The position numbers and the translations under genes are program-made. Below, one piece after another: positions 15,072 through 31,679 of a stretch of 41,294 nucleotides of DNA. The DNA is taken from UHGV virus genome UHGV-0110231; one strand, given 5' to 3'. Every line of letters starts with the position of its first letter. Within the stretch, counting starts at the first letter, position 1. The notes below the pieces were generated by a model that did not search any database, had not been told where the DNA came from, and saw only the letters and a list, made by a program, of their open reading frames with translations. Source of the DNA: a virus.

Positions 15072-15086
15072 TTACCTGAAAGGTAA
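15072..15086. promoter_or_regulatory. Operator-like palindrome upstream of the structural operon
   Basis: TTACCTGAAAGGTAA. Confidence 0.5.
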
Positions 15087-15397: not shown

Positions 15398-17077
15398 ATG
15401 GCGGAAACAACTAAAGAGCGATTGAACAAACAGTTCGCACAACTTGAAAGCGAGCGTCAGTCGTTCGAGCCGCACTGGCGCGAGTTGAGTGATTACATCA
15501 ACCCGCGTGGTTCCCGCTTTCTTACTTCTGAGGTCAACCGTAACGATCGACGCAATACACGCATTATTGATTCGACCGGGACTATGGCGGCGCGCACTCT
15601 CGCCAGCGGCATGATGTCTGGCATCACAAGCCCCGCGCGTCCGTGGTTTCGCCTGGCTACGCCTGATCCTGAAATGATGGATTATGGTCCTGTTAAGTTG
15701 TGGCTTGAGGCGGTGCAGAACCGCATGAACGATATGTTCAATAAGTCGAATCTCTATCAGTCGCTGCCGCAGTTATACGGAAGCCTCGGCACATACAGCA
15801 CTGGTGCAATGGCAGTACTGGAGGATGACGAGGACATCATTCGCACAATGCCATTCCCGATAGGCAGTTACTACCTGGCTAACTCACCTCGTGGCAGTGT
15901 GGACACCTGTTTTCGCAAGTTCTCTATGACTGTTCGTCAGCTTGTTCAGGAGTTCGGGCTAAATAACGTCAGCGAATCCGTAAAAAGCATGTGGGAAAGC
16001 GGCACCTACGAGAAGTGGATTGAAGTGATGCATTCGGTTTACCCGAACATTGACCGCGATACATCGAAGCTGGATAGCAAGAACAAGCCATTCAAATCGG
16101 TTTATTACGAGGTTGGTGGCGATAACGACAAGTTGTTGCGTGAGTCCGGATTTGATGAGTTTCCAATTATGGCTCCGCGCTGGGAAGTTAACGGCGAAGA
16201 TGTTTATGGATCATCATGCCCGGGTATGCTGGCGCTTGGACCTGTTAAGGCATTGCAGCTTCTCCAGAAGCGCAAGTCGCAGTTGATTGATAAAGCCACC
16301 AATCCGCCGATGGTTGCTCCGACTTCCCTCAAGAATCAGCGCGCCTCCCTTCTTCCTGGCGACATCACGTATATCGATCAGATTACTGGTCAGGATGGCT
16401 TCAGGCCTGCTTATCTGGTTAACCCCAGTACAGCAGATTTGGTGGCAGACATTCAGGACACTCGTCAAATCATTAACAGCGCCTACTTTGTCGATCTGTT
16501 CATGATGTTGCAGAACATCAATACCCGCTCGATGCCTGTTGAAGCGGTGATCGAAATGAAAGAAGAAAAACTTCTGATGTTGGGGCCGGTACTTGAGCGT
16601 CTGAACGACGAATGTCTTAATCCTCTCATTGACCGCGCTTTCTCGATGATGGTGCGTAAAAACATGCTGCCGCCACCGCCTGACGCGATGGAAGGCATGC
16701 CCCTGAAGGTCGAATACATTTCCGTCATGGCTCAGGCGCAGAAGTCTATCGGCCTGTCCAGTCTGGCGTCCACGGTTAACTTCATTGGTCAACTTGCGCA
16801 AGCGAAACCAGAAGCTCTCGACAAACTCAACGTTGATCAGGCGATCGATGCATTCGCTGATATGTCCGGAGTGTCTCCAACCGTCATTGTTCCGCAGGAA
16901 CAGGTTGAGCAGGCTCGCCAGCAACGGGCACAGCAGCAACAGCAGCAACAAATGATGGCGATGGGGATGGCGGCGGCACAGGGTGCCAAGACGCTAAGCG
17001 AAGCTAAAACTTCGGATCCGAGTGTTTTGTCAGCTATGGCGAATGCAGTTAGTGGTCAGGGTGGGCAATCACAATGA
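15398..17077 (+). CDS. Portal protein (T7 gp8-like head-to-tail connector)
   Basis: 559 aa; C-terminal Q/M-rich tail (QQQQQQQMMAMGMAAAQG) resembles the T7 gp8 C-terminus. Confidence 0.8.
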   Translation: MAETTKERLNKQFAQLESERQSFEPHWRELSDYINPRGSRFLTSEVNRNDRRNTRIIDSTGTMAARTLASGMMSGITSPARPWFRLATPDPEMMDYGPVKLWLEAVQNRMNDMFNKSNLYQSLPQLYGSLGTYSTGAMAVLEDDEDIIRTMPFPIGSYYLANSPRGSVDTCFRKFSMTVRQLVQEFGLNNVSESVKSMWESGTYEKWIEVMHSVYPNIDRDTSKLDSKNKPFKSVYYEVGGDNDKLLRESGFDEFPIMAPRWEVNGEDVYGSSCPGMLALGPVKALQLLQKRKSQLIDKATNPPMVAPTSLKNQRASLLPGDITYIDQITGQDGFRPAYLVNPSTADLVADIQDTRQIINSAYFVDLFMMLQNINTRSMPVEAVIEMKEEKLLMLGPVLERLNDECLNPLIDRAFSMMVRKNMLPPPPDAMEGMPLKVEYISVMAQAQKSIGLSSLASTVNFIGQLAQAKPEALDKLNVDQAIDAFADMSGVSPTVIVPQEQVEQARQQRAQQQQQQQMMAMGMAAAQGAKTLSEAKTSDPSVLSAMANAVSGQGGQSQ

Positions 17078-17370
17078 CAGATTACGAAGACGATCAACTG
17101 AAAGAAGAAAACGACCGTAAGCAACGTGACATGGCGCAGCGTGAAATTGATGACATTCGCTTTGTCATGAGCAGTGAACAGGGGCGTCGCGTTGTCTGGT
17201 CGGTGCTGGAGAAAGGCCGTGTGTTTTCCGCTATCTCACCGATGGACGCTATGGCAATGGCATTTAATGAGGGGCAACGCAATCTGGCGCTGGAGCTGTT
17301 TCAGCGCGTTATGGCGCATTGCCCTGAACAGTATTTGAAGATGGCCAAAGAGGCCAGTGAACAGGAGTGA
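17074..17370 (+). CDS. Hypothetical head-module protein
   Basis: 98 aa; ATGA overlap with the portal stop. Confidence 0.5.
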   Translation: MTDYEDDQLKEENDRKQRDMAQREIDDIRFVMSSEQGRRVVWSVLEKGRVFSAISPMDAMAMAFNEGQRNLALELFQRVMAHCPEQYLKMAKEASEQE

Positions 17371-17372
17371 TC

Positions 17373-18068
17373 ATGAATTTATTTGAGCGTTTGCTGTATA
17401 GCCGTCTTTGCAATGAGCAACCAGTCGATGGTGGAGCAGCTCCGGCTGCGTCAGAACCGTCAGCGCCTGCAGGTGATAGCCCTGCTCCAGTTGGTGATCC
17501 ATCACAACAGGAAGGTGATAAGCCACAACCTGTTGCTGATGGCGATAAACCTGCTGATGACAAAAAGCCTGAAAACGATAAGCAGGATGAAAAAAAGGAC
17601 GGCGATAAACCAGAGGGTGCGCCTGAGAAGTACGAGTTTCAGGCTGCCGAAGGCGTAGAGCTGGATACAGAAGCGTTGAAGGAATTCGAGCCGGTGGCGC
17701 GAGAACTTAACCTGACCAACGAGCAAGCGCAAAAGCTGGTTGATGCTTATCCGAAGATTCTGGCAGGTGTTCAGCAGCGCCAGGCAGAAGCCTGGCAGAA
17801 AACAACCGAGCAGTGGGCTGCGGATGTAAAAGCTGACAAAGAAATCGGTGGCGACAAGTTGATTTCTAACCTTAGCGCCGCACAGCGTGCGCTTGACCAG
17901 TTCGGGACACCTGAACTCAAAGAATATCTGAACACCACCGGGCTGGGTAATCACCCTGATCTGGTCAAAACGTTCGTGAAAATCGGAAAGGCGATGTCTG
18001 AAGATGGCATGGTCACCGGTGGTAATGAAGGCCAGCGTAGTGCGGCCGAAGTGCTCTATGGCAAATAA
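17373..18068 (+). CDS. Scaffolding protein
   Basis: Acidic, Pro/Ala/Asp/Lys-rich low-complexity N-terminal half; position between portal and capsid. Confidence 0.65.
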   Translation: MNLFERLLYSRLCNEQPVDGGAAPAASEPSAPAGDSPAPVGDPSQQEGDKPQPVADGDKPADDKKPENDKQDEKKDGDKPEGAPEKYEFQAAEGVELDTEALKEFEPVARELNLTNEQAQKLVDAYPKILAGVQQRQAEAWQKTTEQWAADVKADKEIGGDKLISNLSAAQRALDQFGTPELKEYLNTTGLGNHPDLVKTFVKIGKAMSEDGMVTGGNEGQRSAAEVLYGK

Positions 18069-18076
18069 GAGAGGAA

Positions 18077-19069
18077 ATGACAATGGCTGTTAAAGGCTTA
18101 ACTGCGCTAACGCTGGCTGACTGGGGTAAGCGCGTCGATCCAAACGGGAAAGTCGATAAGATTATCGAGCTTCTCGGTCAAACTAACCCGATCCTTCAGG
18201 ATATGCCTTTTGTCGAAGGGAACCTTCCTACCGGACACCGAACCACCATTCGTTCTGGTTTACCTTCAGCTACCTGGCGTTTGCTGAACTATGGCGTACA
18301 GCCAAGCAAATCAACCACAGTGCAGGTAACCGATTCCGTTGGCATGCTGGAAACCTATGCTGAAGTCGATAAATCACTGGCTGATCTGAACGGCAATACC
18401 GCTGAATTCCGCCTGTCTGAAGACCGCGCATTTATTGAAGCGATGAATCAGCAGATGGCGCAGACGCTGTTTTATGGTGATTCCAGCGTTAACCCTCAGC
18501 AGTTTATGGGACTGTCCTCCCGCTATTCCAGCCTGTCTGCGGGTAATGCTCAGAACATCATTGATGCTGGTGGCACGGGTACAGATAACACCTCAATCTG
18601 GTTAGTGGTGTGGGGCGAAAACACCGTGCATGGCATCTTCCCGAAAGGGCAGAAGGCTGGCATCCAGATGGAAGATAAAGGCCAGGTGACACTGGAAGAT
18701 GCTAATGGCGGCAAGTACGAAGGCTATCGCACCCATTACAAATGGGACAACGGACTTGCTCTGCGTGACTGGCGTTATGTTGTTCGCATTGCAAACATCG
18801 ATGTCAGCAATCTTTCAGAACCTTCCTCTGCCGCAAATATTGCGAAGTTGATGGTTAAAGCACTGCATCGCATTCCAAACCGTGGAATGGGTCGCCCGGT
18901 GTTCTACATGAACCGCACTGTAGGCCAGGCTCTTGATCTGCAATCTCTGGAGAAAACATCTCTGGCGATCAGCGTAAAAGAGACAGAAGGCGAGTGGTGG
19001 ACTTCATTCCGTGGTGTACCAATCCGTGAAACTGATGCGCTTCTGGAAACAGAAGCCCGTGTGGTGTAA
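18077..19069 (+). CDS. Major capsid protein
   Basis: 330 aa; position after the scaffold gene; followed by a stem-loop. Confidence 0.75.
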   Translation: MTMAVKGLTALTLADWGKRVDPNGKVDKIIELLGQTNPILQDMPFVEGNLPTGHRTTIRSGLPSATWRLLNYGVQPSKSTTVQVTDSVGMLETYAEVDKSLADLNGNTAEFRLSEDRAFIEAMNQQMAQTLFYGDSSVNPQQFMGLSSRYSSLSAGNAQNIIDAGGTGTDNTSIWLVVWGENTVHGIFPKGQKAGIQMEDKGQVTLEDANGGKYEGYRTHYKWDNGLALRDWRYVVRIANIDVSNLSEPSSAANIAKLMVKALHRIPNRGMGRPVFYMNRTVGQALDLQSLEKTSLAISVKETEGEWWTSFRGVPIRETDALLETEARVV

Positions 19070-19120
19070 CGCCTGTTATTAACCAGTGGGTCGTAACAGA
19101 CCCACTAATGGAGAAAGAAG

Positions 19121-19558
19121 ATGATCACCGACAAACTGTTGATGTTCTCCGAAGCACAGGCGGTAACTGATACCGCGGCTTCTACTGACGTAATCGATCT
19201 AGGTCCAATTGATGGAAATCGTCGCGATATCGGCGTGGGTTACCCGCTTGAGTTTTGGGCGCTGGTTAACGAAGCCGCCACGGCAAGTGGTGAGGCAACT
19301 GTAAACATCCAGTTGCAGACGAGTGAGAATAACAGCTCATGGTCCACTATTTATGATAGTGGCGCACTGGCAAAGGCTACCCTGACAGCAGGTAAACGAG
19401 TTGTTTCTGCAAAGGTGCCTGCCGGTGTTCAGCGATATCTGCGTGTTAACTACTCCGTCGCAACTGGCCCACTAACGGCCGGCAAATTCACTGCGGGTAT
19501 TAGTCTGGATGTTGATGCCAATACACCGTACCCGATCCGCTCAAAAGTAACTGGTTAA
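19121..19558 (+). CDS. Putative capsid decoration/stabilisation protein
   Basis: 145 aa; directly downstream of the capsid gene. Confidence 0.4.
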   Translation: MITDKLLMFSEAQAVTDTAASTDVIDLGPIDGNRRDIGVGYPLEFWALVNEAATASGEATVNIQLQTSENNSSWSTIYDSGALAKATLTAGKRVVSAKVPAGVQRYLRVNYSVATGPLTAGKFTAGISLDVDANTPYPIRSKVTG

Positions 19559-19568
19559 GGTGATTTCG

Positions 19569-19904
19569 ATGTCAGGTGAGAAACCAAGATACCGCGTTCT
19601 GCGCCTCTCTCATATCCATAACACACTGTGGCCGGAGGGGGCAGAAATCGAATACGAAGGTGAGCCTGGTAGCGCACTGGAACCTGTTAACGATGCAGCC
19701 AGACAGGCAAAAGCAAAGGTAGCAGGAAAGGTGACTATGGCAGCAACCAGCACCAAAATCATCAACGATGTGTCAGATGATGGTGAACTGGATAAGCTCC
19801 GTGAAGAGTACGAATTGCTCTTTAACGAGAAGCCACACCATAACGCCAAAGCCGAAACGCTCCGCGAGAAGATCGCAGATAAGCGTAAAGAACTGGGCGT
19901 GTAA
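19569..19904 (+). CDS. Hypothetical structural-module protein
   Basis: AAGGTG Shine-Dalgarno; followed by a terminator. Confidence 0.45.
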   Translation: MSGEKPRYRVLRLSHIHNTLWPEGAEIEYEGEPGSALEPVNDAARQAKAKVAGKVTMAATSTKIINDVSDDGELDKLREEYELLFNEKPHHNAKAETLREKIADKRKELGV

Positions 19905-19920
19905 GCCTCGCGAATCAGAC

Positions 19921-19942
19921 AAGGGGCTTCGGCCCCTTTATT
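19921..19942 (+). terminator. Rho-independent terminator
   Basis: AAGGGGC-ttcg-GCCCCTT followed by TATT. Confidence 0.5.
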
Positions 19943-19954
19943 GCAGGAGTGTAT

Positions 19955-20278
19955 ATGGAACTCGTAAACCTCAAAACCGGCACTGACAGCTACCAGGATG
20001 AGAGCGGAGAAACCAGAACTCGCGATGAATACCCGTGGGGGCTGTGCATCACTCTTAATAATGACACATTGAATAAGCTGAAGGCGCAACCTCAGGGCGT
20101 CGGAACAGAAGTGATGATAACTGCAAGGGCTGTTATTCGAGGCCTGTCTGCCAGAGAAACTGACGATGGTGTTAACCGCAGCGCCGATCTGCAGATCACT
20201 GATATGGCGATCGCTCCTGTTTCCGGGGATGTAGAAAAATCAGCGGCTGAAACCCTGTACGGCAATGGGGGTGAGTAA
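19955..20278 (+). CDS. Hypothetical virion protein
   Basis: AGGAGTG Shine-Dalgarno; coupled to the downstream gene. Confidence 0.45.
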   Translation: MELVNLKTGTDSYQDESGETRTRDEYPWGLCITLNNDTLNKLKAQPQGVGTEVMITARAVIRGLSARETDDGVNRSADLQITDMAIAPVSGDVEKSAAETLYGNGGE

Positions 20279-20883
20279 TGGCCTCTGTAGTAGAGATCTG
20301 CAATCGTGCGCTGTCCAATATTGGCAACAGCCGCAGCATTAACAGCCTGACGGAAGCCAGCAAGGAAGCGGGGGAATGTTCGCTGCACTTTGAGGCCTGC
20401 CGTGATGCTGTGCTTTCTGATTTTGACTGGAACTTTGCTACCAAACGCGTGGCGCTTGCAAATACGAGCAATCCACCGCCTGACTGGGAATATGCGTATC
20501 AGTACCCGTCCGATTGTCTGCGCATTACTGAAATTATGCTTCCTGGTGTACGCAATCCAACAGCAGCAATGCGCGTTCAGTACGAAGTTGGTGCAGACAC
20601 CAACGGAACAGGAAAGTTGATCTACACAGACCAGCCGCAGGCATGGCTCAAGTATGTCTCTCGCGTTTCAGATGTGAACATGTTTGATGCCATTTTTATG
20701 GAGGCGTTGGCCTGGCGTCTTGCGGCAGCTATTAACATGGCGCTGACTGGGAATGCAGACCTCGGTACGTTTGCCCTCAATATGTACAATCTCGTGATTC
20801 TTAGTGCTGGCTCGCATAGCCAGAATGAATCACAGGAACCACAGCCACCGGTTGACGAGTTTACCATTGCGAGGTTGTCCTGA
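20278..20883 (+). CDS. Tail tubular protein A / adaptor (T7 gp11-like)
   Basis: 201 aa; size and position before the large nozzle gene. Confidence 0.5.
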   Translation: MASVVEICNRALSNIGNSRSINSLTEASKEAGECSLHFEACRDAVLSDFDWNFATKRVALANTSNPPPDWEYAYQYPSDCLRITEIMLPGVRNPTAAMRVQYEVGADTNGTGKLIYTDQPQAWLKYVSRVSDVNMFDAIFMEALAWRLAAAINMALTGNADLGTFALNMYNLVILSAGSHSQNESQEPQPPVDEFTIARLS

Positions 20884-23354
20884 TGGCTATCAGTTGGATC
20901 CAGCCCAGCTTTGCCGGTGGTGAGATTGGACCGTCGTTGTACGGGCGTATTGACATGGCGAAGTACCAGGTAGCATTGCGCAAGTGCGATAACTTTATCG
21001 TGCGGCAGTATGGCGGCGTTGAGAATCGACCTGGTACGCGTTTTGTCGGTGCCGCCAAATACCCAAATCGGAAATGCCGCCTGATCCCGTTCCAGTTCTC
21101 GACGGTTCAGACTTATGCTCTGGAGTTCGGACACCAGTACATGCGCGTTATCAAAGATGGTGCGTTGGTGCTGAACAGCAGCAATGTTATTTATGAAATT
21201 GCCACGCCATATACTGAAGCCGATCTGTTCCGAATTAAATTCACGCAAAGCGCAGACGTGCTTACGCTGGTTCATCCGGCATACCCGCCGAAAGAGTTGC
21301 GCCGCTATGCGCATGACAACTGGCAACTGGTTGATGTGGTAACGAAGAACGGGCCATTTGAAGATATCAATATTGACGAGTCAGTGACGGTTTATGCCAG
21401 CGCCAGCACCGGGACAATTACGTTAACGGCAAGCGCCTCTATTTTTGGCGCGGAGCAGGTAGGCAAATTGTTCTATCTGGAACAGCCTGCAGTGGATTCA
21501 GTGCCGGTATGGGAAACCAGTAAGAGTACGTCGATTGGCGATATTCGCCGTGCAGACAGTAACTACTATCGCGCCGTTACAGCAGGCAAAACAGGCACTT
21601 TGCGCCCTTCGCATACAGAAGGCACATCATGGGATGGCTGGGGCGGATCCGGTGATGATGATACTGGCATTGAGTGGGAGTATCTGCACAGTGGTTTTGG
21701 TATTGCCCGTATCACTGCTGTAAACGGCACTACTGCAACTGCCGAGGTGATTTCCTATATCCCTTCGCAGGTCGTTGGCGAGGATAATGCCAGCTATAAA
21801 TGGGCTAAATATGCCTGGAACAGTGTTAATGGTTATCCTGGCACTGTTGTTTATTATCAACAACGTCTTTACTTCGCCGCATCGACTGCGTTCCCTCAGA
21901 CTATCTGGGCCAGCCGTACTGGGGATTATAAGGATTTTGGCAAAAGCAATCCTACGCAGGATGACGACAGAATTATCTACACCTATGCCGGGCGTCAGGT
22001 TAATGAGATCCGCCACCTGATTGATGTCGGTTCGCTGGTGGCGCTGACTTCCGGAGGTGAGTACGTCATCACCGGCGACCAGAACAAAGTATTAACCCCA
22101 TCATCATTTGCATTCAGCTCTCAGGGATCAAATGGCTCGAGCAATGTCCCACCAATTGCCGTGGCGAATATTGCTCTGTTCGTCCAGGAGAAAGGCAGTG
22201 TTGTCCGTGATCTGGCCTACTCATTCGATGTTGACGGCTATCAGGGGAACGACCTGACAATCCTTGCCAATCATCTTTTTCAGAAGCACAGCATTGTTGA
22301 CTGGTGCTTCTCTATTGTCCCTTACTCCAGCGCCTTCTGCATTCGTGATGACGGTAAATTACTGGTGATGACCTATTTGCGTGATCAGCAGGTTTTTGCA
22401 TGGGCACCACAATCCAGTACCGGAAAATATGAAAGCACATGCAGTATCAGCGAAGGCAATGAAGATGCGGTGTATTTCGTCGTTAACCGAACCGTTAACG
22501 GGCAAACAGTGAGATACATCGAGCGGCTGTCCAGCCGTTTATTTACCAGCGATGAAGATGCTTTCTTTGTTGATTCTGGCCTTAGCTATGATGGAAGAAA
22601 TACGTCTGACAGAACGATGACCATCACTGGTGGTTCTGGTGAATGGGATTACCGTGCGGAATATACAATCAGTGTTTCTGGTGGTGCGTACTTCACCAGT
22701 GGCGATGTCGGTGCGCAACTACAGTTCCCTTATACCGGAACTGATCCTGATACTGGCGATGAAGTGTCAAAAGAATTACGTTGCGACATCATTTCTGTAA
22801 CCAGCAATACCGCTGTAGTGGTTCGTGCTAACAGGAACGTCCCGCCATCCCTCAGGAATGTGGCCACCACGAACTGGCAGATGGCGCGTCGGACATTTGG
22901 AGGCCTGTCTCATCTTGAAGGACAGATCGTAAACATTCTTTCTGATGCGAATGTTGAGCCACAGAAAGTTATTTCCGGAGGTGCCGTCACACTGGAATCT
23001 CCGGGGGCTATAGTGCACATCGGCCTGCCAATAACTGCTGAATTCGAAACACTGGATATCAACATTAACGGACAGGAAACGCTGCTGGACAAAAAACAGG
23101 TGATCCCCTCCGTTACTCTGGTTGTGAATGCCAGCCGCGGCATCTGGGCGACTACGCCTGGCGGTAAATGGTACGAATATCCACAGCGTGAATTCGAGTT
23201 CTACGATGATCCTGTTGATGATGCTACCGGAAAAGTGGAAGTGAAACTGGACAGTAACTGGGGCAAAAACGGACGTGTAAAAATCCGTCAGCTTGACCCG
23301 TTGCCGCTGTCTGTTCTTGCCGTTATTCCTCGCCTTACTGTTGGGGGATTCTGA
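20883..23354 (+). CDS. Tail tubular protein B / nozzle (T7 gp12-like)
   Basis: 823 aa; size and position. Confidence 0.55.
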   Translation: MAISWIQPSFAGGEIGPSLYGRIDMAKYQVALRKCDNFIVRQYGGVENRPGTRFVGAAKYPNRKCRLIPFQFSTVQTYALEFGHQYMRVIKDGALVLNSSNVIYEIATPYTEADLFRIKFTQSADVLTLVHPAYPPKELRRYAHDNWQLVDVVTKNGPFEDINIDESVTVYASASTGTITLTASASIFGAEQVGKLFYLEQPAVDSVPVWETSKSTSIGDIRRADSNYYRAVTAGKTGTLRPSHTEGTSWDGWGGSGDDDTGIEWEYLHSGFGIARITAVNGTTATAEVISYIPSQVVGEDNASYKWAKYAWNSVNGYPGTVVYYQQRLYFAASTAFPQTIWASRTGDYKDFGKSNPTQDDDRIIYTYAGRQVNEIRHLIDVGSLVALTSGGEYVITGDQNKVLTPSSFAFSSQGSNGSSNVPPIAVANIALFVQEKGSVVRDLAYSFDVDGYQGNDLTILANHLFQKHSIVDWCFSIVPYSSAFCIRDDGKLLVMTYLRDQQVFAWAPQSSTGKYESTCSISEGNEDAVYFVVNRTVNGQTVRYIERLSSRLFTSDEDAFFVDSGLSYDGRNTSDRTMTITGGSGEWDYRAEYTISVSGGAYFTSGDVGAQLQFPYTGTDPDTGDEVSKELRCDIISVTSNTAVVVRANRNVPPSLRNVATTNWQMARRTFGGLSHLEGQIVNILSDANVEPQKVISGGAVTLESPGAIVHIGLPITAEFETLDININGQETLLDKKQVIPSVTLVVNASRGIWATTPGGKWYEYPQREFEFYDDPVDDATGKVEVKLDSNWGKNGRVKIRQLDPLPLSVLAVIPRLTVGGF

Positions 23355-23818: not shown

Positions 23819-24363
23819 TGTGCGATCCGGTTATTGCTGGTGGCGCAATGCTCGCCATGAGTGGCATTCAGGCATACACCCAGTACCAACAGGGAAAGTA
23901 TGCCTCGAAGGTTGCAGAAGCGAACGCAGATATAGCCACTGCTCAGGCAAATGATGCAATAAACAGAGGTAACGCTGAAGCTGAGCAACGGCGCAGAGAG
24001 ACCCGACAGCGGCTTGGTACACAGGCGGCGACAATGGGGGCTACCGGCGCTGATTTATCTACAGGTAACGCGCTGGATATATTTGGCGACACTGCCCAGT
24101 TTGGCGCTCTTGATTCGCTGACGACGGTGAATAACGCGCAACGCGAGGCTTACGGTTATCAGGTTCAGGCTGCCAACTATAAAGCAGAAGCCAGTTCAGC
24201 CCGTAAACAGGGGAATGTGGGAGCAGCAACAACATTGCTCACTGCGCCTCTGAAGGCATACGGTGCGTACCAGATGTTTGGTGGGACGTGGAGTCCGTTT
24301 ACTCAAAGCACTCCTGCGCCAATCGGGGCAGCAGCAGGAACCAGATTACCCGGAGGATTATAA
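23818..24363 (+). CDS. Internal virion protein (gp14-like position)
   Basis: 181 aa; Gly/Ala/Gln-rich. Confidence 0.45.
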   Translation: MCDPVIAGGAMLAMSGIQAYTQYQQGKYASKVAEANADIATAQANDAINRGNAEAEQRRRETRQRLGTQAATMGATGADLSTGNALDIFGDTAQFGALDSLTTVNNAQREAYGYQVQAANYKAEASSARKQGNVGAATTLLTAPLKAYGAYQMFGGTWSPFTQSTPAPIGAAAGTRLPGGL

Positions 24364-26876
24364 TGCCAGTCGTACCAACAGTATCCGGACGTCAGGTTGA
24401 GAGCCGTGGAGTTCAGTCAGCAGGCTTGCAGACGTTTTCTCAGCCAGGTATTGGTGATGCTTTTGTTCTGGCAGGGGCAGAGACTATTGATGTTTTTGGT
24501 CAGGCAAAACAGCGTGCCAATATCGCTCTGGCTCAGGAGGCATCTCTTAACCTCAGTCAGATAAGCAGCGATCTGCTGAATAACCCTGAAACAGGGTTGC
24601 TTAACCTGAAAGGGAAAAATGCTATTGGAAAAGGCCATGAGTATACGCAGCAGTTTGATGCTCAGGTCGAACAACTGGCTATGTCGCTGCCGGATGAACA
24701 GGCTCGTAATACTTTCATGCAGCAGGCGCAGCAGCAGCGCATTCAGTTCACTACGCAGGCCGGGCGGCACGAGATAGGGCAAATAAACGCCTACGAAGAA
24801 GGCCAGTTTCAGGCTACGCTGCTGAACAATGGTAAAAATGCCGCAGCATTGTATGGCGACAACGCCGCATACGTATTGGCTAATAAGCAAACTTTCCAGC
24901 AAATTGAGGATTACGGCATTGCGCATGGCTGGAGCGACGAGCAAATCCAGGCCAAGAAAGTCGAGTTTAAAGAGAAGGTTGCTGATGCCGCATTGTCCCA
25001 GTGGTCGGCAAACAATGCGACCGCATTCATCCAAAGTAATGGCGAGTTAAGTGATACTGCTGCTGGAGCTCGCCGTGCTGTAGCAGATAGTGACTCTTCC
25101 GAGCGTGCCCGTGGCATACGCAACAATAACCCAGGAAATCTCGAATACAGCAAAACTAATCCGTGGGTAGGCCAGACCGGTGATGATGGTCGATTTGCTA
25201 AATTCGAAACACCTGAACACGGGATTCGTGCATTAGGGCGAAACCTGATGTCGTATCAGAGGCAGGGTATTGATACCGTCAGCGAGATAATTAATCGCTG
25301 GGCACCGCCTACTGATAAAAATGACACTATGTCGTATATCAAAGCAGTGTGCGAACAACTTGGCGTTTCTGCTGATGAGCCTCTCGATGCATCTAATCCT
25401 GATACCCTGAAGGCGCTTTGTGCAGCCATTATCCATCATGAGAACGGTAGCCAGCCATACAGTGATCAGCAGTTAACTGCTGGTGTCAGTGCAGCACTTG
25501 GTTTATCAACAATTCCAACCAACACCAAACGCTATACCGGTAATGCAGCATTCGATGCGGCATCTCCTGAGGCGCAGGCAAGTTTTATGCGAAAGGCGGA
25601 TCAACTGCGTCGGCAGCAGCAGGCTGAATATAAAACGATGATTGACAGCCAGGTTCGCGATGCGACAGCTGCGTATATGCGTGGCGTTGAATTTCCTAAC
25701 CCACCTGGTGAGGCTGATTTTATTGCAGCTTATGGAGTCAGAGAAGGAAACCTGCGATATACCGAGTTCAGAAATACGCAAATCGCCGGACAGTATATAG
25801 GCTCTTTCCGCAACATGCCGACAAGCAGCATTACAGCATATGTTGAGCAATTACGCCCGGATACTGGTGAGACAGGGGAGGGTTATGCGGCACGAGCCGC
25901 TCTTTATGACAACGTTGTGTCGGCTGCAAATCAGGTGATAAAGCAGCGACAGGCTGATCCTGTACAGTTCTCTCTTGCCGCCGGACAGGCAAAGCCTATC
26001 GACATGAGCAATAAGGATAACTTTGGACAGAGCGTTGCCTTGCGTGCTGCTCAGGTCAGTGACCTTGCTAAGTCATATGGCACTCCACTGACGTTCTTTT
26101 CCAAAGACGAGGCCAATCAGATCGGTGTTTTCTTTCGTGATGCGCCCGTTTCCCAACAGGCAGCATATCTCGATACCATCAGGCAGAGCACTGGTGGTGG
26201 GCAGGTGTATATGTCAGCACTACAGCAGATCAGTGCCAACGCTCCATCTGCTGCCGTTGCCGGGATACTGATGGATAAGCCAGGTGGTATTTTGGCAGAA
26301 AAAAACTGGTTTAATCCGGATGTTTCCGTGTCTCCTGAAACCGCTGCGCAGACAATTCTTGCTGGCGCGGCGGCTCGTAAAGGTACTGATGACGCGAAAG
26401 GTATTCCGATGCCTAAAGATGCTGATCTCCGCCTTGAGTTTTCTGACATGGTGAAGGATGCATTTGCTGGTGATGCTCAGGGGGCATCAATGGCATACGA
26501 GATCGCAAAGGACTATTACGCTGGTGTGATGGCGAAAAAAGGCGTGGTATCAGGCGAAATTGACAATGATATCTGGAAACAGGCTGTTAACGTAGCTACA
26601 GGTGGCGTGCATGACTATAACGGAATGGGGAATGTTCTTTTGCCGTGGGGAATGTCTGCAGAGCAATTCGATAAGCAGGTTAATCAGGCTTGGAATGAAC
26701 AAGTTGTTGGCACAGGGATAAAAACACCGCCTGGTCAGTATGGTTTGCAAAGTTACGGCGATAGTCAGTACCTGGTGAAACTTGGTACTGGTTATCTGCT
26801 AAAAGATGATGGTTCTCCCGTTGTTCTTGATCTGACACAGAAGCGTCAGAGATTCTCCGGAGATATTCCGCAATGA
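24363..26876 (+). CDS. Large internal virion / ejection protein
   Basis: 837 aa from the ATG at 24363 (TAATG overlap with the previous stop). Confidence 0.55.
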   Translation: MPVVPTVSGRQVESRGVQSAGLQTFSQPGIGDAFVLAGAETIDVFGQAKQRANIALAQEASLNLSQISSDLLNNPETGLLNLKGKNAIGKGHEYTQQFDAQVEQLAMSLPDEQARNTFMQQAQQQRIQFTTQAGRHEIGQINAYEEGQFQATLLNNGKNAAALYGDNAAYVLANKQTFQQIEDYGIAHGWSDEQIQAKKVEFKEKVADAALSQWSANNATAFIQSNGELSDTAAGARRAVADSDSSERARGIRNNNPGNLEYSKTNPWVGQTGDDGRFAKFETPEHGIRALGRNLMSYQRQGIDTVSEIINRWAPPTDKNDTMSYIKAVCEQLGVSADEPLDASNPDTLKALCAAIIHHENGSQPYSDQQLTAGVSAALGLSTIPTNTKRYTGNAAFDAASPEAQASFMRKADQLRRQQQAEYKTMIDSQVRDATAAYMRGVEFPNPPGEADFIAAYGVREGNLRYTEFRNTQIAGQYIGSFRNMPTSSITAYVEQLRPDTGETGEGYAARAALYDNVVSAANQVIKQRQADPVQFSLAAGQAKPIDMSNKDNFGQSVALRAAQVSDLAKSYGTPLTFFSKDEANQIGVFFRDAPVSQQAAYLDTIRQSTGGGQVYMSALQQISANAPSAAVAGILMDKPGGILAEKNWFNPDVSVSPETAAQTILAGAAARKGTDDAKGIPMPKDADLRLEFSDMVKDAFAGDAQGASMAYEIAKDYYAGVMAKKGVVSGEIDNDIWKQAVNVATGGVHDYNGMGNVLLPWGMSAEQFDKQVNQAWNEQVVGTGIKTPPGQYGLQSYGDSQYLVKLGTGYLLKDDGSPVVLDLTQKRQRFSGDIPQ

Positions 26877-28675
26877 GTTACTTTGGCCTTAATCCAGTAA
26901 ACCAGAATCAGCAGCTTGAAGAAGCAGCATCAAATCCAGCTGGCTTTAACAGCGATGTTGGTTTTTTCGACAATGCTGTAGGAGCGGCATTGTCTGGTTT
27001 GTACTCCGGGCTGGTGGCAAAGCCAGACCAGTTTCTATGGGCAGGGATGGATAAAATCGTATCCCCGGTTGCTCAGTTTGTTAACGAAAACACCTCGCTC
27101 AATGACACTTCAGTTTCATACATTGCTGAGCAGAGAAAACTAGCAGAGCAGCAGGTTAAGCGGCTGACGCCTGATGCCGCGACAACCGGAACCGCCGGGC
27201 AGGTCCTTTATGGGTTGTTCGATATGGGCGGGCAGGCTGTTGTCGGTACAACGCTCGGTGGTCCGGTCGGAGGTGCTGCGGCAGTAACTTCTCTACAGGG
27301 TTTTTCTGAGTTTGAACGGCTGACAGCACAGGGTGTTGATTTCAGGACGGCGCAGGAAGCGGGATTAGTGCAGGGTATTACTGCTGGTGCCGGAACACTG
27401 ATCCCTATGAGCCTCGGGTTACGTGCTGGTGGTGCGCTGGCGGAAGGTGTGGCGGCCCAGCTTGCGCGGACTGGTGAAAGTTCAGTGCGACGCGCCGCAG
27501 CAACAGCAGTACGTGCAACGCCAGATATTGCCTATGCTGCAGGTACAAATATTGCGTTCGGTATGGCACAGCGTGGGCTTACTGCAAAAACGCTTCGTGA
27601 TGGTGGCTATAGCGAAATGGCTAACCAGTATGATGTGTTGGATCGACAGGCAATTGCTATTGATGCTGTTCTTGGGGTGGCGTTTGGTGGTGTCGGCAGA
27701 TTTATTAACTCTCGCGGCGAGTCTACAAGCGCACCAAATTTTTCACCAGTTGATGTTGATGCTGCACTGGCGGCGAATGCCGCTCATCATGCTGAAATTG
27801 ATATTGCGCCCGGCGTGCCGATCAACGTGCTTTCGCGCAATTCTCACATTCAGGCTCTGCGAAAAGCTATGTCTGATGTTAGCCAGGGGAGACCTGTAGA
27901 CGTTGCCAGCATTGTTGAGTCTGCATCTTTCAGTGAAATTCCTAGGCGCAAGAGTCTGCTGTCTCAGGCAGTTAATGAGGCTCTGTCATCTGTAGATAAT
28001 GGAGTAACGGCGCGCGCTATAGAAAATCGGTTGCTTGAAGAACAGGCCGCGCAGCTTTTGCCGCGTGGAGATAGACAGGTTTACCAGTCTGAAATCGCTA
28101 ATAGCCAACGAATTATTGAAAATCTCACTGAACAGCGTGCACAAATTCTTGCAGAAGAGCCAACCGGTAGCGGTAAAGCTTTGTCTCGTGCTCGATCAGA
28201 TAAACAGGCTAGACTTCGCGATATTGATCAACGAATCCGGCAGGCACAAGAACGCCTGGAATTTTCCCGTAACGCGTTGGCACCGCACGAGCCAGGCGGT
28301 CAGTTTTTTGAGGCTCGAGCAGAACTGGCTCGGAGACAGCAGGCAGAAAGTGAACTTAATGCTCAGGCTGTTTCATTCTATAAAACAGCAGAGGTCAGGA
28401 TGCCAGACGAAGTAGCTCCTTTTGAGCCTGATAAAATATTGCAACAGGCAGAACAAAAAATAATGTCAGATCAGGCAGGAGATATTGATCTGCGCATAGC
28501 TGAAGACTCGCTGCTTGAATCACCTGACATGATAATCACCGTGCTGGATGATGATGGTAATCCACAATCGCGCAGTGCGCGTGAAGTACTGGATGAAGCG
28601 AACAGGGAAAGTGAGCAGGCAATACAGGATTCCAGCCTGTTTGATGTCGCTGTGGCGTGTTTCTTGAGAGGTTAA
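26873..28675 (+). CDS. Internal virion / ejection protein
   Basis: 600 aa; Ala/Gly-rich N-terminal region, coiled-coil C-terminal half. Confidence 0.5.
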   Translation: MSYFGLNPVNQNQQLEEAASNPAGFNSDVGFFDNAVGAALSGLYSGLVAKPDQFLWAGMDKIVSPVAQFVNENTSLNDTSVSYIAEQRKLAEQQVKRLTPDAATTGTAGQVLYGLFDMGGQAVVGTTLGGPVGGAAAVTSLQGFSEFERLTAQGVDFRTAQEAGLVQGITAGAGTLIPMSLGLRAGGALAEGVAAQLARTGESSVRRAAATAVRATPDIAYAAGTNIAFGMAQRGLTAKTLRDGGYSEMANQYDVLDRQAIAIDAVLGVAFGGVGRFINSRGESTSAPNFSPVDVDAALAANAAHHAEIDIAPGVPINVLSRNSHIQALRKAMSDVSQGRPVDVASIVESASFSEIPRRKSLLSQAVNEALSSVDNGVTARAIENRLLEEQAAQLLPRGDRQVYQSEIANSQRIIENLTEQRAQILAEEPTGSGKALSRARSDKQARLRDIDQRIRQAQERLEFSRNALAPHEPGGQFFEARAELARRQQAESELNAQAVSFYKTAEVRMPDEVAPFEPDKILQQAEQKIMSDQAGDIDLRIAEDSLLESPDMIITVLDDDGNPQSRSAREVLDEANRESEQAIQDSSLFDVAVACFLRG

Positions 28676-28680
28676 ATTAA

Positions 28681-31155
28681 ATGAGACAGGAATGTATACA
28701 AGCGGTTCAGCAGGCGGCGCAGCGCATGTTAACGGCGCGAGAAATACAGAACATTGAAGACCGCATTTATCGAAATATGCGCTCCATTGCTCGTGATGAC
28801 CCGATGTCGTGGCGACAACTTTCCGAATCAGAGCGGCTATATCGAGCAGCACAATTGGCATCTGAAGAATTACAGCGAGAAGTGGCATTAAAGAAACGTC
28901 GTGTGGCTCTCACTATAGCCGCGCGTCAGAGATTGGATAAATTTATCAATAGCTATCAAGGGGCTGATGGGAAACTTGGCGCTCTTAACCGTACTATAGC
29001 TTTTAATGCAGACGGTAAATCTAATTTCCTCTCTGTTGAATCCAGAACAAAAGCCACCCGTGATTATGCATTGAGTCAATTGCAGGAGGCATTCGAAGCA
29101 GTTGATCCTCGCTTTTTTGGTCTGTTTGAAGATGAAGCTGGCGTACGTGACCTGGTATATGAAATGCGGGGGCAAAATACTGGCAATGCTAAAGCAAGAA
29201 AAGGTGCTAAGGCGTGGAGAGAAGTTACAGAGCTGCTGCGCCGCCGGTTTAATGATGCTGGTGGGGACATTGGCTATCTCGAAAACTGGGGGATCCCTCA
29301 ACATCATTCTATGGAAAAGGTTGGGGCGGTATCAAAGGATAAGTGGGTTAGCGATGTTATAGGTAAGCTGGATCGCAAATATTATACCCGAGCCGATGGA
29401 CAACTGATGAACGATGCCGAGTTGTCTGCATTTCTTGGAGAGGCTTATAACACGATCGCTACTGGTGGGCTGAATAAGCTTACTGATACCGGAATGCGAA
29501 TTTCCGGCGCACGTGCTAACCGTGGTAATGCATCACGACAGATACATTTCAAAGATGCAGATTCCTATCTCCAATATCAACAACTTTATGGCGATCGCTC
29601 TCTATGGGAAATCATGGTCGGTCACCTGGAAGGTATCAGTAAAGATATTGCTCTGGTGGAAACATATGGTCCAAACCCCGATCATGTTTTCCGCTCCCTT
29701 CTTGATCAGGTTAAGGCAGAAACGGCAACAGCTAACCCGAGTAAAACCGGTAGCGTCGAGCGTCTGGCGAACAAAACAGAGAACTTGTACAACTTTATTT
29801 CCGGAAAAACACAGCCTGTAGCGAATCCCCACATCGCGCGATGGTCTGACAATATCCGCAACTGGCTGGTTGCCAGCAGACTCGGATCCGCGTTGCTGTC
29901 ATCGTTCTCTGATCTTGGAACCATGTATCTGTCTGCGAAGGTTACCAACCTTCCAATGAACCAGTTATTTCGCAACCAGCTTGAAGCTATGGACCCAACG
30001 AACCGTACTGAGCTTGCGCGGGCGCGCCGCGCTGGCCTGGCGATGGAATCTCTACTTGGCAGCGTTAACCGCTGGGCGATGGATAATATGGGGCCGTCTG
30101 TGTCTCGTTGGGCGGCAACGGCGGTAATGCGTGCCAGTGGGCTTACAGCATGGTCAGATGCGCACAAGCGCGCCTATGGCGTAACCATGATGGGAAGCCT
30201 GGGAGAAGTAGTGTCACGGACACCAGACCTTCGTAGCCTTGATGACTCTGATTTTCGTATCCTGAAAAGCAAAGGGATTACTGACACAGACTGGAGCGTA
30301 TGGAAGTTGGCGCAACAGGAGGACTGGGGGAACGGTAATAATACGATGCTGACGCCGGAAAGCATTATGCGTATCCCTGATTCAGCAGTTAAACATCTTG
30401 GTGAGCCTGAACGCGTGAAATTTGAGGCAATGCGTAAACTGCTCGGTGCCGTAACTGAAGAAGTTGATATGGCTGTTATTACACCGGGAGCACGTGAGCA
30501 ACTGATAACCGGTTCTGGTATTCAGCGTGGAACATGGAAAGGTGAATTAACGAGAAGTGTTTTCCTGTTTAAATCGTTCCCTATCTCGGTTGTTATGCGT
30601 CACTGGTCACGCGCTATGGGTATGCCGTCTGCTGGTGGGCGTGCGGCATATATTGCGACGTTTATTGCCAGTACGACCATTCTTGGCGCTTTGTCGCAGC
30701 AACTTAACGACCTTGCGTCTGGTCGTAATCCTCGAGAGATGACAGGAGAAGATGCCGCAAAATTCTGGCTTGGTGCTCTACTGAAAGGTGGTGGTCTTGG
30801 TCTTTACGGTGACTTTTTATTGTCAGATCACACTAGGTACGGAAGCGGCGCGCTGGCGTCGATGCTTGGCCCGGTAGCTGGTCTGGTTGATGACGTAGTG
30901 AAGATAGCTCAGGGCATACCGCTAAATGCTGTGGAAGGGAAGAGTGAGCAGACTGGTGGTGATCTGGTGAAGCTGGGGAAAGGTTTGATGCCAGGTGCGA
31001 ATCTCTGGTACTTGAAGGCGGCTCTCGATCACATGATCTTTAACCAGATGCAGGAGTATTTTTCACCAGGCTATTTGCGTAAAATGGAGCAACGTTCGAA
31101 GAAAGAGTTTAACCAGACATACTGGTGGCGACCTCAGGATGTCACTCCGCAATAA
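28681..31155 (+). CDS. Large internal virion / ejection protein (gp16-like position)
   Basis: 824 aa; last large gene before the tailspike region. Confidence 0.55.
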   Translation: MRQECIQAVQQAAQRMLTAREIQNIEDRIYRNMRSIARDDPMSWRQLSESERLYRAAQLASEELQREVALKKRRVALTIAARQRLDKFINSYQGADGKLGALNRTIAFNADGKSNFLSVESRTKATRDYALSQLQEAFEAVDPRFFGLFEDEAGVRDLVYEMRGQNTGNAKARKGAKAWREVTELLRRRFNDAGGDIGYLENWGIPQHHSMEKVGAVSKDKWVSDVIGKLDRKYYTRADGQLMNDAELSAFLGEAYNTIATGGLNKLTDTGMRISGARANRGNASRQIHFKDADSYLQYQQLYGDRSLWEIMVGHLEGISKDIALVETYGPNPDHVFRSLLDQVKAETATANPSKTGSVERLANKTENLYNFISGKTQPVANPHIARWSDNIRNWLVASRLGSALLSSFSDLGTMYLSAKVTNLPMNQLFRNQLEAMDPTNRTELARARRAGLAMESLLGSVNRWAMDNMGPSVSRWAATAVMRASGLTAWSDAHKRAYGVTMMGSLGEVVSRTPDLRSLDDSDFRILKSKGITDTDWSVWKLAQQEDWGNGNNTMLTPESIMRIPDSAVKHLGEPERVKFEAMRKLLGAVTEEVDMAVITPGAREQLITGSGIQRGTWKGELTRSVFLFKSFPISVVMRHWSRAMGMPSAGGRAAYIATFIASTTILGALSQQLNDLASGRNPREMTGEDAAKFWLGALLKGGGLGLYGDFLLSDHTRYGSGALASMLGPVAGLVDDVVKIAQGIPLNAVEGKSEQTGGDLVKLGKGLMPGANLWYLKAALDHMIFNQMQEYFSPGYLRKMEQRSKKEFNQTYWWRPQDVTPQ

Positions 31156-31647: not shown

Positions 31648-31655
31648 CATGTCAC
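31644..31655. repeat. Perfect 12-bp palindrome GTGACATGTCAC (copy 3)
   Basis: Overlaps the stop codon of the 31351..31647 gene, in the same register as copy 1. Confidence 0.7.
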
Positions 31656-31679
31656 AGGCCGCTTTCGCGGCCTTTAAAT

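Follow-up and report, generated by a model that had tools for sequence, protein, structure and literature searches.

Positions 39-38846 of the window, the whole 41,294-nucleotide stretch analysed here (UHGV-0110231), almost certainly constitute a 38.8-kb prophage that looks intact, belongs to the phiV10/epsilon15 group (genus Uetakevirus) and is integrated at the 3′ end of guaA of E. coli by its own P4-type tyrosine integrase. The block at 15398-31155, which a preliminary description had picked out as a T7-like podovirus structural module, is real and was rightly recognised, yet it is already known and not new. Only the tailspike receptor domain and the neighbouring putative O-antigen acyltransferase are unusual, and swapping of such a cassette is well known.

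The prophage is bounded by an exact 17-bp direct repeat (Table 1), whose sequence has been published for phiV10, epsilon15 and ZX5 as their attP/attB core, and for ZX5 both a short tail and guaA integration were shown by experiment (PMC9782041). The integrase is 98.6% identical in amino acids to phiV10 p31, annotated as cd00801 INT_P4, and contains the three domains (arm-binding, central and catalytic) that a P4-type integrase should have. Across its entire length (100%), the structural block has 98.1-98.4% nucleotide identity to phiV10, phiv142-3, ZX5, PAS61 and O157 typing phages 9 and 10, all of them short-tailed or classified as Uetakevirus; in total, phiV10 and at least six further sequenced phages match at 98%. 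Any match to the block was found in 570 of 5426 complete E. coli genomes, and 297 of these 5426 carry 80% or more of it. A comparison with all 55 phiV10 proteins showed most of them to be collinear, with 96-100% amino acid identity in the structural block. The suggestion of a possible distinct member within a limited set of phages is thus not supported, given the 98% identity, the collinear proteins, the 570 matching genomes and the published att core.

Table 1. Features of the prophage in window coordinates
Feature	Position	Strand	Basis or remark
attL core, ATTGAGTGGGAATGATT	39-55	+	overlaps last codons and stop of guaA (...IEWE*)
P4-type tyrosine integrase, 416 aa	246-1496	+	Pfam Arm-DNA-bind_3, Phage_int_M, Phage_integrase
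Early-left operon	1500-5191	-	Pfam; collinear with phiV10 p32-p39
DUF1382 protein, MT-A70 adenine methyltransferase, PerC, small membrane protein, two small ORFs	within 1500-5191	-	
AlpA/Xis-like protein	2743-2991	-	early-left operon
RecT	3041-3922	-	Pfam
PD-(D/E)XK exonuclease	3919-4740	-	Pfam
PL-/PR-like control regions	5211-6047		four Rep operators TTACC-N5-GGTAA at 5211, 5273, 5985, 6033
Prophage repressor Rep, 194 aa	5345-5929	-	Pfam HTH_3
Cro-like small regulator, 76 aa	6084-6314	+	PHROG 35 'transcriptional repressor', E 5.6e-13; divergent from Rep
Replication module	6681-8278	+	Pfam PF13730, PF17948, PF06992
Replication initiator (HTH_36 + DnaT domain)	6681-7496	+	four 24-bp iterons at 6935-7087
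Lambda-P family helicase loader	7478-8278	+	lambda-P homologue
Variable nin-like region (DUF1064, Ead/Ea22, DUF551, others)	8396-11840	+	Pfam, PHROG
Terminase small (Terminase_2) and large subunits	11881-14027	+	Pfam PF03592; PHROG 2 terminase large subunit
tRNA-Arg(TCT)	14673-14749	-	ARAGORN; Rfam RF00005, 73.3 bits
Portal, 559 aa	15398-17077	+	Pfam Head-tail_con PF12236, E 1.6e-187
Head genes (Bbp19-like to gp10-like staple)	17074-20278	+	Pfam PF25181, PF20911, PF21190, PF21628
Prohead protease, 233 aa	within 17074-20278	+	PHROG 458
Major capsid protein, 330 aa	18077-19069	+	epsilon15 GP7 capsid Pfam family
Bbp16-family cement protein, then 114-aa ORF	within 17074-20278	+	Pfam Bbp16
gp10-like capsid staple	19949-20278	+	Pfam Gp10-like
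Predicted tail adaptor, 201 aa (T7 gp11/'tail tubular protein A' fold)	20278-20883	+	AF2 model and Foldseek
Tail nozzle, 823 aa (T7 gp12 position)	20883-23354	+	Carin-1 'Tail Nozzle' 8ck1_A, E 2.6e-216
Internal virion/ejection proteins, 154, 181, 837, 600, 824 aa	23354-31155	+	PHROG 308, 418 'internal virion protein'
837-aa protein	24363-26876	+	peptidoglycan-hydrolase domain, residues 249-399
Antirepressor Ant, 85 aa	31680-31937	-	SPC32H anti-repressor 5d50_E, E 4.4e-46, residues 2-84 aligned
LexA box, CTGTATAAATGTACAG	31959-31974		22 nt upstream of ant start codon
Tailspike, 929 aa	32133-34922	+	conserved N-terminal anchor (~230 aa), exchanged receptor-binding domain
AT3 + SGNH acyltransferase, 600 aa	34959-36761	-	Pfam PF01757, PF19040; GC about 0.33-0.36
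Lysis cassette: membrane/holin-like protein, holin, GH19 endolysin, Rz, embedded Rz1	36913-38719	+	PHROG 198 holin; Z142-1 annotation
attR core	38830-38846	+	followed by host genes yfgI, yfgH (annotation of the equivalent region in Z142-1)

The block comprises 14 collinear plus-strand ORFs from the portal through the last internal virion protein, and their products are of 559 (portal), 98, 233 (protease), 330 (major capsid), 145, 114, 109, 201, 823, 154, 181, 837, 600 and 824 aa. The portal gene that begins at 15398 is complete and not a fragment. The portal matches that of Carin-1 (8ck0_A, E 5.7e-179) and is 99.1% identical to phiV10 p07 and 81% to epsilon15 gp4; only residues 381-555 resemble a T7-like portal (cyanophage P-SCSP1u) directly in sequence, which agrees with the T7-like portal C-terminus noticed earlier. 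Solved relatives of the capsid protein are those of BPP-1 (3j4u), Carin-1 (8cjz) and epsilon15 (3j40). The PF12236 portal, the prohead protease, the capsid protein (HK97 fold, BPP-1/epsilon15 type) and the cement and staple proteins would serve to build the head.

From the 201-aa protein onwards, gene order and sizes parallel T7 gp11-gp16 (196, 794, 138, 196, 747 and 1318 aa), as the preliminary description had said of tail tubular A/B and the internal genes. The 201-aa protein is predicted to be a T7 gp11-fold adaptor: its AF2 model (pLDDT 80.6) retrieved Carin-1 8ck1_E (E 2.5e-16), LME-1 9efk, KP32 tail tubular protein A (5mu4) and T7 gp11 (7box_M, E 7.7e-7, TM 0.57) in Foldseek, and it is 84% identical to epsilon15 gp11, for which the RefSeq record notes that HHpred matched T7 tail tubular protein A. 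For the nozzle, AF2 modelling reached a pLDDT of only 38.6, so a gp12-like fold is assigned to it from solved homologous nozzles and the literature; the protein matches LME-1 orf18 (E 5e-16) and PHROG 376 tail protein, and is 88% identical to epsilon15 gp12. The LME-1 tail 'closely resembles' that of T7, and the nearest relative of LME-1 is Carin-1 (PMC12407071). The five internal proteins are 97-100% identical to phiV10 p16-p20; the 181-aa protein belongs to the T7_gp14 family (PF24072, E 2.5e-7), and further matches among the internal proteins were to Gp29 (9vvp_L, E 3.8e-38) and an endolysin (7q47). Neither pairwise nor shallow-profile comparison with T7 proteins gave significant similarity, and 'T7-like' holds for architecture only, not for sequence. 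By analogy with relatives, a gp11-fold adaptor ring and nozzle mounted on the portal would form the short tail, and the five internal proteins, one of the gp14 family and one with a peptidoglycan-hydrolase domain, would be packaged as a core that, once ejected, bridges the cell envelope.

Temperate functions flank the block. The genome is of temperate podovirus type, as described before, and its P4-type integrase, repressor and cro-like genes, replication genes and RecT/exonuclease pair are all present outside 15398-31155. The terminase is of the P22/Sf6 type, with subunits 99-100% identical to phiV10 p01/p02. The nin-like region is shared with phiV10 only in part and ends in a conserved regulator gene (11493-11840), and tRNA-Arg(TCT) is annotated in phiv142-3 and Z142-1. 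Lysis proteins are 87-96% identical to phiV10 p27-p30a. In the tailspike, only residues 1-227 align with that of phiV10 (76%); the receptor-binding domain is 47% identical to its nearest phage relative, and this domain also occurs fused to other anchor types, including P22-type head-binding anchors. The acyltransferase gene sits in the slot of phiV10 oac and is probably an O-antigen-modifying lysogenic-conversion gene. Such a modular tailspike would recognise O-antigen, which the adjoining AT3-SGNH acyltransferase would modify in the lysogen.

The lysogeny switch appears, from homology, to be a repressor/antirepressor system of the SPC32H type. Rep is 100% identical to phiV10 p40 and homologous to SPC32H Rep (5d50_A, E 4e-42); Pfam found its HTH only and no S24 peptidase (autocleavage) domain. 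The cro-like protein is likewise 100% identical to phiV10 p41. We found 13 matches of the operator motif against 0.8 expected, and the predicted operators are intergenic and ahead of most operons, except two inside terS; the motif is kept in phiV10, and the RefSeq record of epsilon15 marks it as protein_bind sites named 'repressor'. The HTH repressor, bound to 19-bp palindromes (TATTACC-N5-GGTAATA) that precede most operons, would maintain lysogeny, and upon SOS induction LexA would leave the ant promoter and Ant would strip the repressor from DNA, as relatives suggest. Of the 'lambdoid regulation' proposed earlier, a repressor divergent from a cro-like gene stands, but Rep/Ant, the missing S24 domain, the failure to find an N- or Q-type antiterminator, and operators at most operons depart from it. 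O/P-type replication holds for the lambda-P homologue and not for the initiator.

The intergenomic similarity to phiV10 is only 78.8%, and the combination of receptor domain and acyltransferase occurs in one of 5426 complete E. coli genomes. Both points would fit a distinct, previously unrecognised temperate podovirus lineage, in which a T7-like structural module is joined to lambdoid control. This is very improbable and refuted at the lineage level: seven or more sequenced phages share the block at 98% identity, most of it is carried by the 297 genomes above, gene order, att site, integrase and repressor are those of phiV10, and the differences are limited to known variable cassettes (PMC10408124). 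After ant, phiV10 and the Z142-1 prophage carry Bro-N antirepressor genes that are missing here, which might mean that the element is not a functional prophage but a defective, cryptic remnant. We consider this unlikely, as both att cores, the core ant gene and the LexA box before it are all intact, and the structural, lysis, replication, integration and switch genes of phiV10 are all full length here (87-100% amino acid identity) with no frameshift. No evidence contradicting the phiV10-group assignment was found.

It is hardly credible that a P22-like (Lederbergvirus) or other lambdoid prophage had its structural block misread as T7-like, even though the small terminase is Terminase_2 and HHpred matched epsilon15 TerL to Sf6 gp2, P22-type anchors also bear the tailspike receptor domain, review trees put the epsilon15 gp14- and gp16-like proteins nearer P22, and residues 211-446 of the 837-aa protein match a PHROG named 'tape measure'. 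The last match overlaps the peptidoglycan-hydrolase domain; moreover, portal family PF12236 is annotated as bacteriophage head-to-tail connecting protein, the adaptor has the predicted gp11 fold, the nozzle is homologous to solved T7-type nozzles, and no tail tube or major tail gene is present.

The phiV10-group prophage has the whole-genome gene order of Uetakevirus phiV10 (NC_007804), whose other close relatives are phiv142-3, vB_EcoP_ZX5, PAS61, O157 typing phages 9 and 10, and TL-2011b. With phiV10 it shares identical sequences of the repressor, the cro-like protein and the small terminase subunit, as well as the att core, guaA site and tRNA-Arg(TCT). phiV10 differs in encoding a 338-aa Oac instead of the acyltransferase, in its tailspike receptor domain and nin-like region, and in its Bro-N region (p21-p23), absent here; the RecT allele is 74% identical to that of phiV10, and RecE and RecT are separate ORFs here, likewise in phiv142-3. 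The Salmonella phages epsilon15 (type member and cryo-EM model podovirus) and SPC32H/SPN1S follow the same genome plan, and epsilon15 has the same att core and the same operators (ATTACC-N5-GGTAAT) ahead of operons. Its capsid protein is 43% and its last internal protein 28% identical, it is without an annotated lambda-P homologue, and it converts serotype via an O-antigen polymerase and inhibitors, not an acyltransferase.

With T7 (Autographiviridae) the prophage shares the order portal, capsid, adaptor, nozzle, small internal, gp14-like, large internal proteins and fibre/spike at similar sizes, and the likeness extends to the portal Pfam family, the adaptor fold and the gp14 family match. 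Unlike T7, it is temperate, has no phage RNA polymerase or T7-type replication genes, and uses a P22/Sf6-type terminase and tailspikes, not fibres; its peptidoglycan-hydrolase domain lies in the gp15-position protein and not at the gp16 N-terminus, and two proteins (600 and 824 aa) fill the gp16 position. The closest solved portal, capsid, adaptor and nozzle are those of Cobetia phage Carin-1 (8CJZ, 8CK0, 8CK1) and Legionella phage LME-1 (9EFK), with E values of 1.2e-87 for capsid and 2.7e-26 for adaptor. LME-1 is likewise chromosomally carried with a T7-like virion, but both phages have other hosts, about 32-50% identity or less, and unrelated non-structural genes. The prophage resembles lambda in that its repressor and cro-like genes diverge, its left operon includes a recombination module and its iteron-containing initiator precedes a P-family loader; a nin-like region and a holin, endolysin and Rz/Rz1 cassette are further common features. 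In contrast to lambda, its repressor is without S24 and has operators at most operon starts, induction would go via a LexA-controlled antirepressor, neither an N nor a Q homologue was detected, its initiator combines HTH_36 with DnaT and is not of the lambda O family, and the virion genes are of podovirus type.

When the morphogenesis block, 14 collinear ORFs running from the portal to the last internal virion protein, was searched by megablast against 50,697 phage records, it was matched with 100% coverage at 98.1-98.4% identity by phiv142-3, ZX5, phiV10, O157 typing phages 9 and 10 and PAS61, and at 97.5% identity by HEMP4. The block is ∼98% identical to seven Uetakevirus members; Enterobacter phage Tyrion gave 82%, and epsilon15 gave 75% in a partial match. 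Moreover, 570 of 5426 complete E. coli genomes contain a match to the block, which covers at least 80% of it in 297. By tblastn with all 55 phiV10 proteins, the two genomes are collinear, core genes being 87-100% and structural proteins 96-100% identical, and the repressor, the cro-like protein and TerS being identical. Collinear order and orthology were thus found for the core proteins considered, i.e. terminase, portal, capsid, adaptor, nozzle, internal proteins, lysis, integrase and repressor. The ICTV convention places in one genus phages with a whole-genome nucleotide similarity of ∼70% or more to a member, and the prophage, with an intergenomic similarity to phiV10 of 78.8% in a VIRIDIC-style calculation (82% of the genome aligned at 96.0% identity), lies above this value for Uetakevirus.

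From left to right, the window holds an integrase, a leftward early operon, a divergent pair of repressor and cro-like genes and a rightward replication and nin-like region (ORF listing, composition and tRNA scan), followed by the terminase genes and the long plus-strand morphogenesis block, and at the right end by the tailspike, a low-GC minus-strand gene and the lysis cassette (ORF listing and composition), which is the gene layout of a typical phage. An exact 17-bp direct repeat, ATTGAGTGGGAATGATT, is present on both sides. Its left copy overlaps the 3′-terminal codons of guaA (...IEWE stop), the C-terminus of which is encoded in the left flank, and the host genes yfgI and yfgH lie 3′ of the right copy. 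The same sequence is the published attP/attB core of phiV10, epsilon15 and vB_EcoP_ZX5 (PMC9782041). Therefore, the two repeats, the guaA end, the host genes and the published core together define the prophage boundaries, with integration at the guaA 3′ end via ATTGAGTGGGAATGATT as in Uetakevirus. The integrase was correctly called P4-type in the preliminary description: arm-binding (PF13356, Arm-DNA-bind_3), central (PF22022) and tyrosine recombinase catalytic (PF00589) domains were all found with Pfam, and the phiV10 orthologue, 98.6% identical, is annotated cd00801 INT_P4.

Likeness to T7 had been claimed for the portal C-terminus and for the order and sizes of the tail and internal virion genes; it stands for fold and architecture, but not for sequence, since no T7 structural protein gave a significant pairwise match. 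From the adaptor on, the proteins measure 201, 823, 154, 181, 837, 600 and 824 aa, in parallel with the 196, 794, 138, 196, 747 and 1318 aa of T7 gp11-gp16. The 559-aa portal belongs to the Head-tail_con family (Pfam PF12236, E 1.6e-187, 624 bits vs a cutoff of 27), residues 381-555 alone resembling a T7-like portal (cyanophage P-SCSP1u) by sequence, in line with the remark on its C-terminus, and position 15398 is, as a correction to the earlier reading, the start of the complete portal gene. Pfam assigned the 330-aa protein to the epsilon15 GP7 capsid family, and ORFs neighbouring the capsid gene to Bbp19-like, Bbp16 and Gp10-like capsid accessory proteins. PHROGs class the 201-aa and 823-aa proteins as tail proteins, and those of 154 and 181 aa as internal virion proteins. 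The 181-aa protein also belongs to the T7_gp14 family (PF24072, 31.2 bits vs a cutoff of 27) and is followed by large ejection proteins, of which the next, with 837 aa, carries a peptidoglycan-hydrolase domain at residues 249-399, whereas in T7 this activity resides at the gp16 N-terminus.

Searches with T7 gp8-gp19 against the prophage proteins (phmmer --max, BLASTP) gave nothing significant, and hhalign of T7 gp11 and gp12 against the family profiles gave a probability of 0.1, these profiles being shallow (Neff 1.3-2.1) as the homologues listed were close relatives only (at least 55% identity for the adaptor and at least 82% for the nozzle). The AlphaFold (AF2) model of the adaptor (pLDDT 80.6) was matched by Foldseek, with a probability of 1.00, to the Carin-1 connector, the LME-1 adaptor, T7 gp11 (7box_M; E 7.7e-7, TM 0.57) and KP32 tail tubular protein A (5mu4), and the adaptor as modelled has the gp11/tail tubular protein A fold. 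For the nozzle, the AF2 model from 17 close homologues had a pLDDT of 38.6, too low for a fold search; this protein, which may have the gp12/tail tubular protein B fold, is clearly homologous to two solved nozzles, the Carin-1 ‘Tail Nozzle’ (E 2.6e-216) and that of LME-1. By tblastn, PDB entries 8CJZ, 8CK0 and 8CK1 were identified as Cobetia phage Carin-1, the nearest structural relative of LME-1, whose portal-tail complex is close in likeness to T7 (PMC12407071). A review of ejection proteins counts epsilon15 among the phages that have homologues of gp14/15/16 and a core stack like that of T7, and groups epsilon15 proteins nearer P22 in its trees (PMC8954989). The 824-aa internal protein had no match in a PDB sequence search, and none of ten structural, packaging and regulator proteins had an NCBIfam family. 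Packaging is not T7-like; TerS is of the Terminase_2 family (Pfam), and TerL of epsilon15 has, according to its record, an HHpred match to Sf6 gp2. Of the two marks of Autographiviridae, significant sequence similarity to T7 core proteins and a phage single-subunit RNA polymerase, neither was found, the polymerase having been sought in the ORF list, the phiV10 protein mapping and domain scans of most ORFs.

Directly after the last internal virion gene lie two small, strongly hydrophobic ORFs of 57 and 98 aa, the latter in PHROG 3075 (function unassigned), which may encode membrane or superinfection-exclusion proteins.

Features of the prophage and its surroundings, with counterparts in related genomes
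Feature	Window coordinates	Strand	Counterpart
Prophage	39-38846		
ATTGAGTGGGAATGATT repeats	39-55; 38830-38846		
TTACC-N5-GGTAA palindromes	189-203; 5211-5225; 5273-5287; 5985-5999; 6033-6047; 6370-6384; 8316-8330; 8378-8392; 11927-11941; 11945-11959; 15072-15086; 32014-32028; 36802-36816		
Exonuclease and RecT	3041-4740	-	
Repressor (Rep)	5345-5929	-	
24-bp repeats	6935-7087		
TGTGACATGTCAC(G/A) palindromes	11836-11849; 14101-14114; 31643-31656		
gp49/Sf6-gp66-family gene	14118-14474	-	
tRNA-Arg(TCT) (-) and 83-aa ORF PhiV10p04 (+)	14492-14749	-/+	phiV10 (L001) 2672-2929
CTGTACGGGTTTACAG site	14542-14557		
Morphogenesis block	15398-31155	+	
Capsid protein	18077-19069	+	
Last internal virion protein	28681-31155	+	
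57-aa ORF	31165-31338		
98-aa ORF	31351-31647		
Place of missing Bro-N module	31647-31680		phiV10 (L001) 19345-20230; Z142-1 prophage (L003) 2024-3692
Antirepressor (Ant)	31680-31937	-	
Tailspike	32133-34922	+	
Receptor domain and acyltransferase	32823-36761		

Regulation had been described as lambdoid, and a divergent pair of repressor and cro-like genes is indeed present, but the two marks of lambdoid control, a CI-type S24 repressor and N/Q antitermination, were not found: Rep has HTH domains without an S24 peptidase domain (Pfam), and Pfam and PHROG scans of the early and late regulator ORFs gave no match to N- or Q-family antiterminators, of which very divergent ones are possible. Rep is homologous to the Rep of SPC32H, an epsilon15-like Salmonella phage (5d50_A, E 4e-42), the 85-aa Ant is closely homologous to the antirepressor of SPC32H (5d50_E, E 4.4e-46), and a LexA box, CTGTATAAATGTACAG (CTGT-N8-ACAG), lies 22 nt upstream of the ant start codon, a combination which, as read from sequence, points to an SPC32H-type switch. 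In the likely circuit, by analogy, Rep would hold most promoters shut, LexA would leave the ant promoter upon DNA damage, and Ant would then release Rep from DNA. This circuit follows the published SPC32H model in the form in which it is cited (Kim and Ryu 2013, as cited in PMC7380047). A Bro-N antirepressor-like gene with two to three small ORFs, located 3′ of ant in phiV10 and in the prophage of E. coli strain Z142-1, is absent here, leaving only Ant, which is predicted to be LexA-controlled.

In the window the palindrome TTACC-N5-GGTAA, in full TATTACC-N5-GGTAATA, has 13 copies vs 0.8 expected, most of them intergenic, beside promoter-like sequences and ahead of an operon. Two lie near a leftward PL-like promoter, two between the repressor and cro-like genes (PR-like), one past the cro terminator, two past the P-gene terminator, one each before the structural block, the tailspike, the lysis genes and int, and two within the 5′ part of terS. 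These sites are kept in phiV10. We considered the dispersed palindromes as a possibly new multi-operator scheme and rejected this, because the epsilon15 RefSeq record already annotates identical ATTACC-N5-GGTAAT sites as repressor-binding; the phiV10-type and epsilon15 repressors have been reported to be only 42% identical despite their common operator sites (PMC9782041).

A second palindrome, TGTGACATGTCAC(G/A), has three copies vs 0.18 expected, all at the borders of operons: one immediately 5′ of terS, one past the terminator hairpin of terL and one next to the terminator lying between the 98-aa ORF and ant. The third copy sits where the Bro-N module is missing compared with Z142-1, and the palindrome may serve a regulator or mark a recombination boundary. 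A second CTGT-N8-ACAG match, CTGTACGGGTTTACAG, falls between the tRNA-Arg gene and the gp49/Sf6-gp66-family gene. Two such matches in the window are no more than chance (11/100 shuffles) and the spacer of CTGTACGGGTTTACAG is GC-rich, so this site may be nothing.

The O/P-type replication and RecT/exonuclease modules named in the preliminary description are both supported. The replication initiator has HTH_36 and DnaT domains and lacks the lambda O family (Pfam), and four 24-bp direct repeats within its gene, with consensus GAATnAnCCCAAAAACGGGAT, are likely the iterons of an origin; lambda O also has iterons inside its gene, whereas its domains differ from those of the prophage initiator. A lambda-P family protein follows (PF06992, Phage_lambda_P, E 1.5e-56). 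RecT (293 aa) and a PD-(D/E)XK exonuclease (273 aa) are adjacent, separate ORFs with an overlapping stop, likewise in phiv142-3 and Z142-1, whereas in phiV10 the two are annotated as one 586-aa RecE-RecT ‘fusion’. With only 74% identity to its phiV10 counterpart, the RecT part represents an exchanged allele, and the nin-like region also differs from that of phiV10. The minus-strand tRNA-Arg(TCT) (Rfam, 73 bits) overlaps the 83-aa ORF PhiV10p04; phiV10 RefSeq shows no tRNA there, phiv142-3 and Z142-1 annotate one, and the ORF may be spurious. Among ten accessory ORFs PADLOC returned an orphan methyltransferase alone, so no hidden defence system was found in them.

The resemblance of the 929-aa tailspike to that of phiV10 is confined to the N-terminal 227 residues (76%, tblastn), and no phage relative of its receptor-binding part exceeds 47% identity. 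The receptor domain together with the adjacent acyltransferase was found in 1 of 5426 complete E. coli genomes, that of strain Z142-1 (95.9%). Elsewhere the receptor domain is fused, at 85-89% identity, to P22-type (PF09008), PF18668 and T7-fibre-type (PF03906) anchors, which is the modular exchange already known for O-antigen-specific tailspikes (PMC10408124). The acyltransferase (600 aa, AT3 and SGNH, GC ∼0.33-0.36) occupies the slot of phiV10 oac. This rare pair may be of use in serogroup-specific detection or in engineered bacteriocins.

Compared with epsilon15, the portal (81% identical), adaptor (84%) and nozzle (88%) have close counterparts, whereas the capsid protein is only 43% identical to gp7 and the last internal protein 28% identical to gp17, i.e. 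there is mosaicism inside the genus. The capsid protein is closer to that of Bordetella phage BPP-1 (E 9.5e-129), the closest solved capsid protein, than to epsilon15 gp7.

The similarity of 78.8% to phiV10, the single genome sharing the cassette and the 47% identity of the nearest phage receptor domain argue for a new species-level Uetakevirus member, for which an E. coli O-antigen new to the genus would be the target of the rare tailspike receptor domain and would then be modified by the paired AT3-SGNH acyltransferase, and we give this reading an even chance; if true, it adds one receptor-binding-protein subtype to the known catalogue. At most, the prophage is a further species-level variant of something already known, one more data point on the frequency of the group in E. 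coli, with little significance beyond correct annotation. The feature itself is real and its nature was recognised correctly. Ever since the genome papers on epsilon15 and phiV10, a virion module of T7 architecture has reportedly been known in combination with temperate control. A short-tailed virion has been shown for ZX5 (PMC9782041) and, in the cryo-EM literature as cited in PMC8954989, for epsilon15. Cryo-EM structures, a genus name and a solved complex of repressor and antirepressor already exist for the group. The prophage is an ordinary representative of a named genus already characterised in structure and genetics, and its combination of T7 architecture with a temperate life is the defining plan of Uetakevirus.
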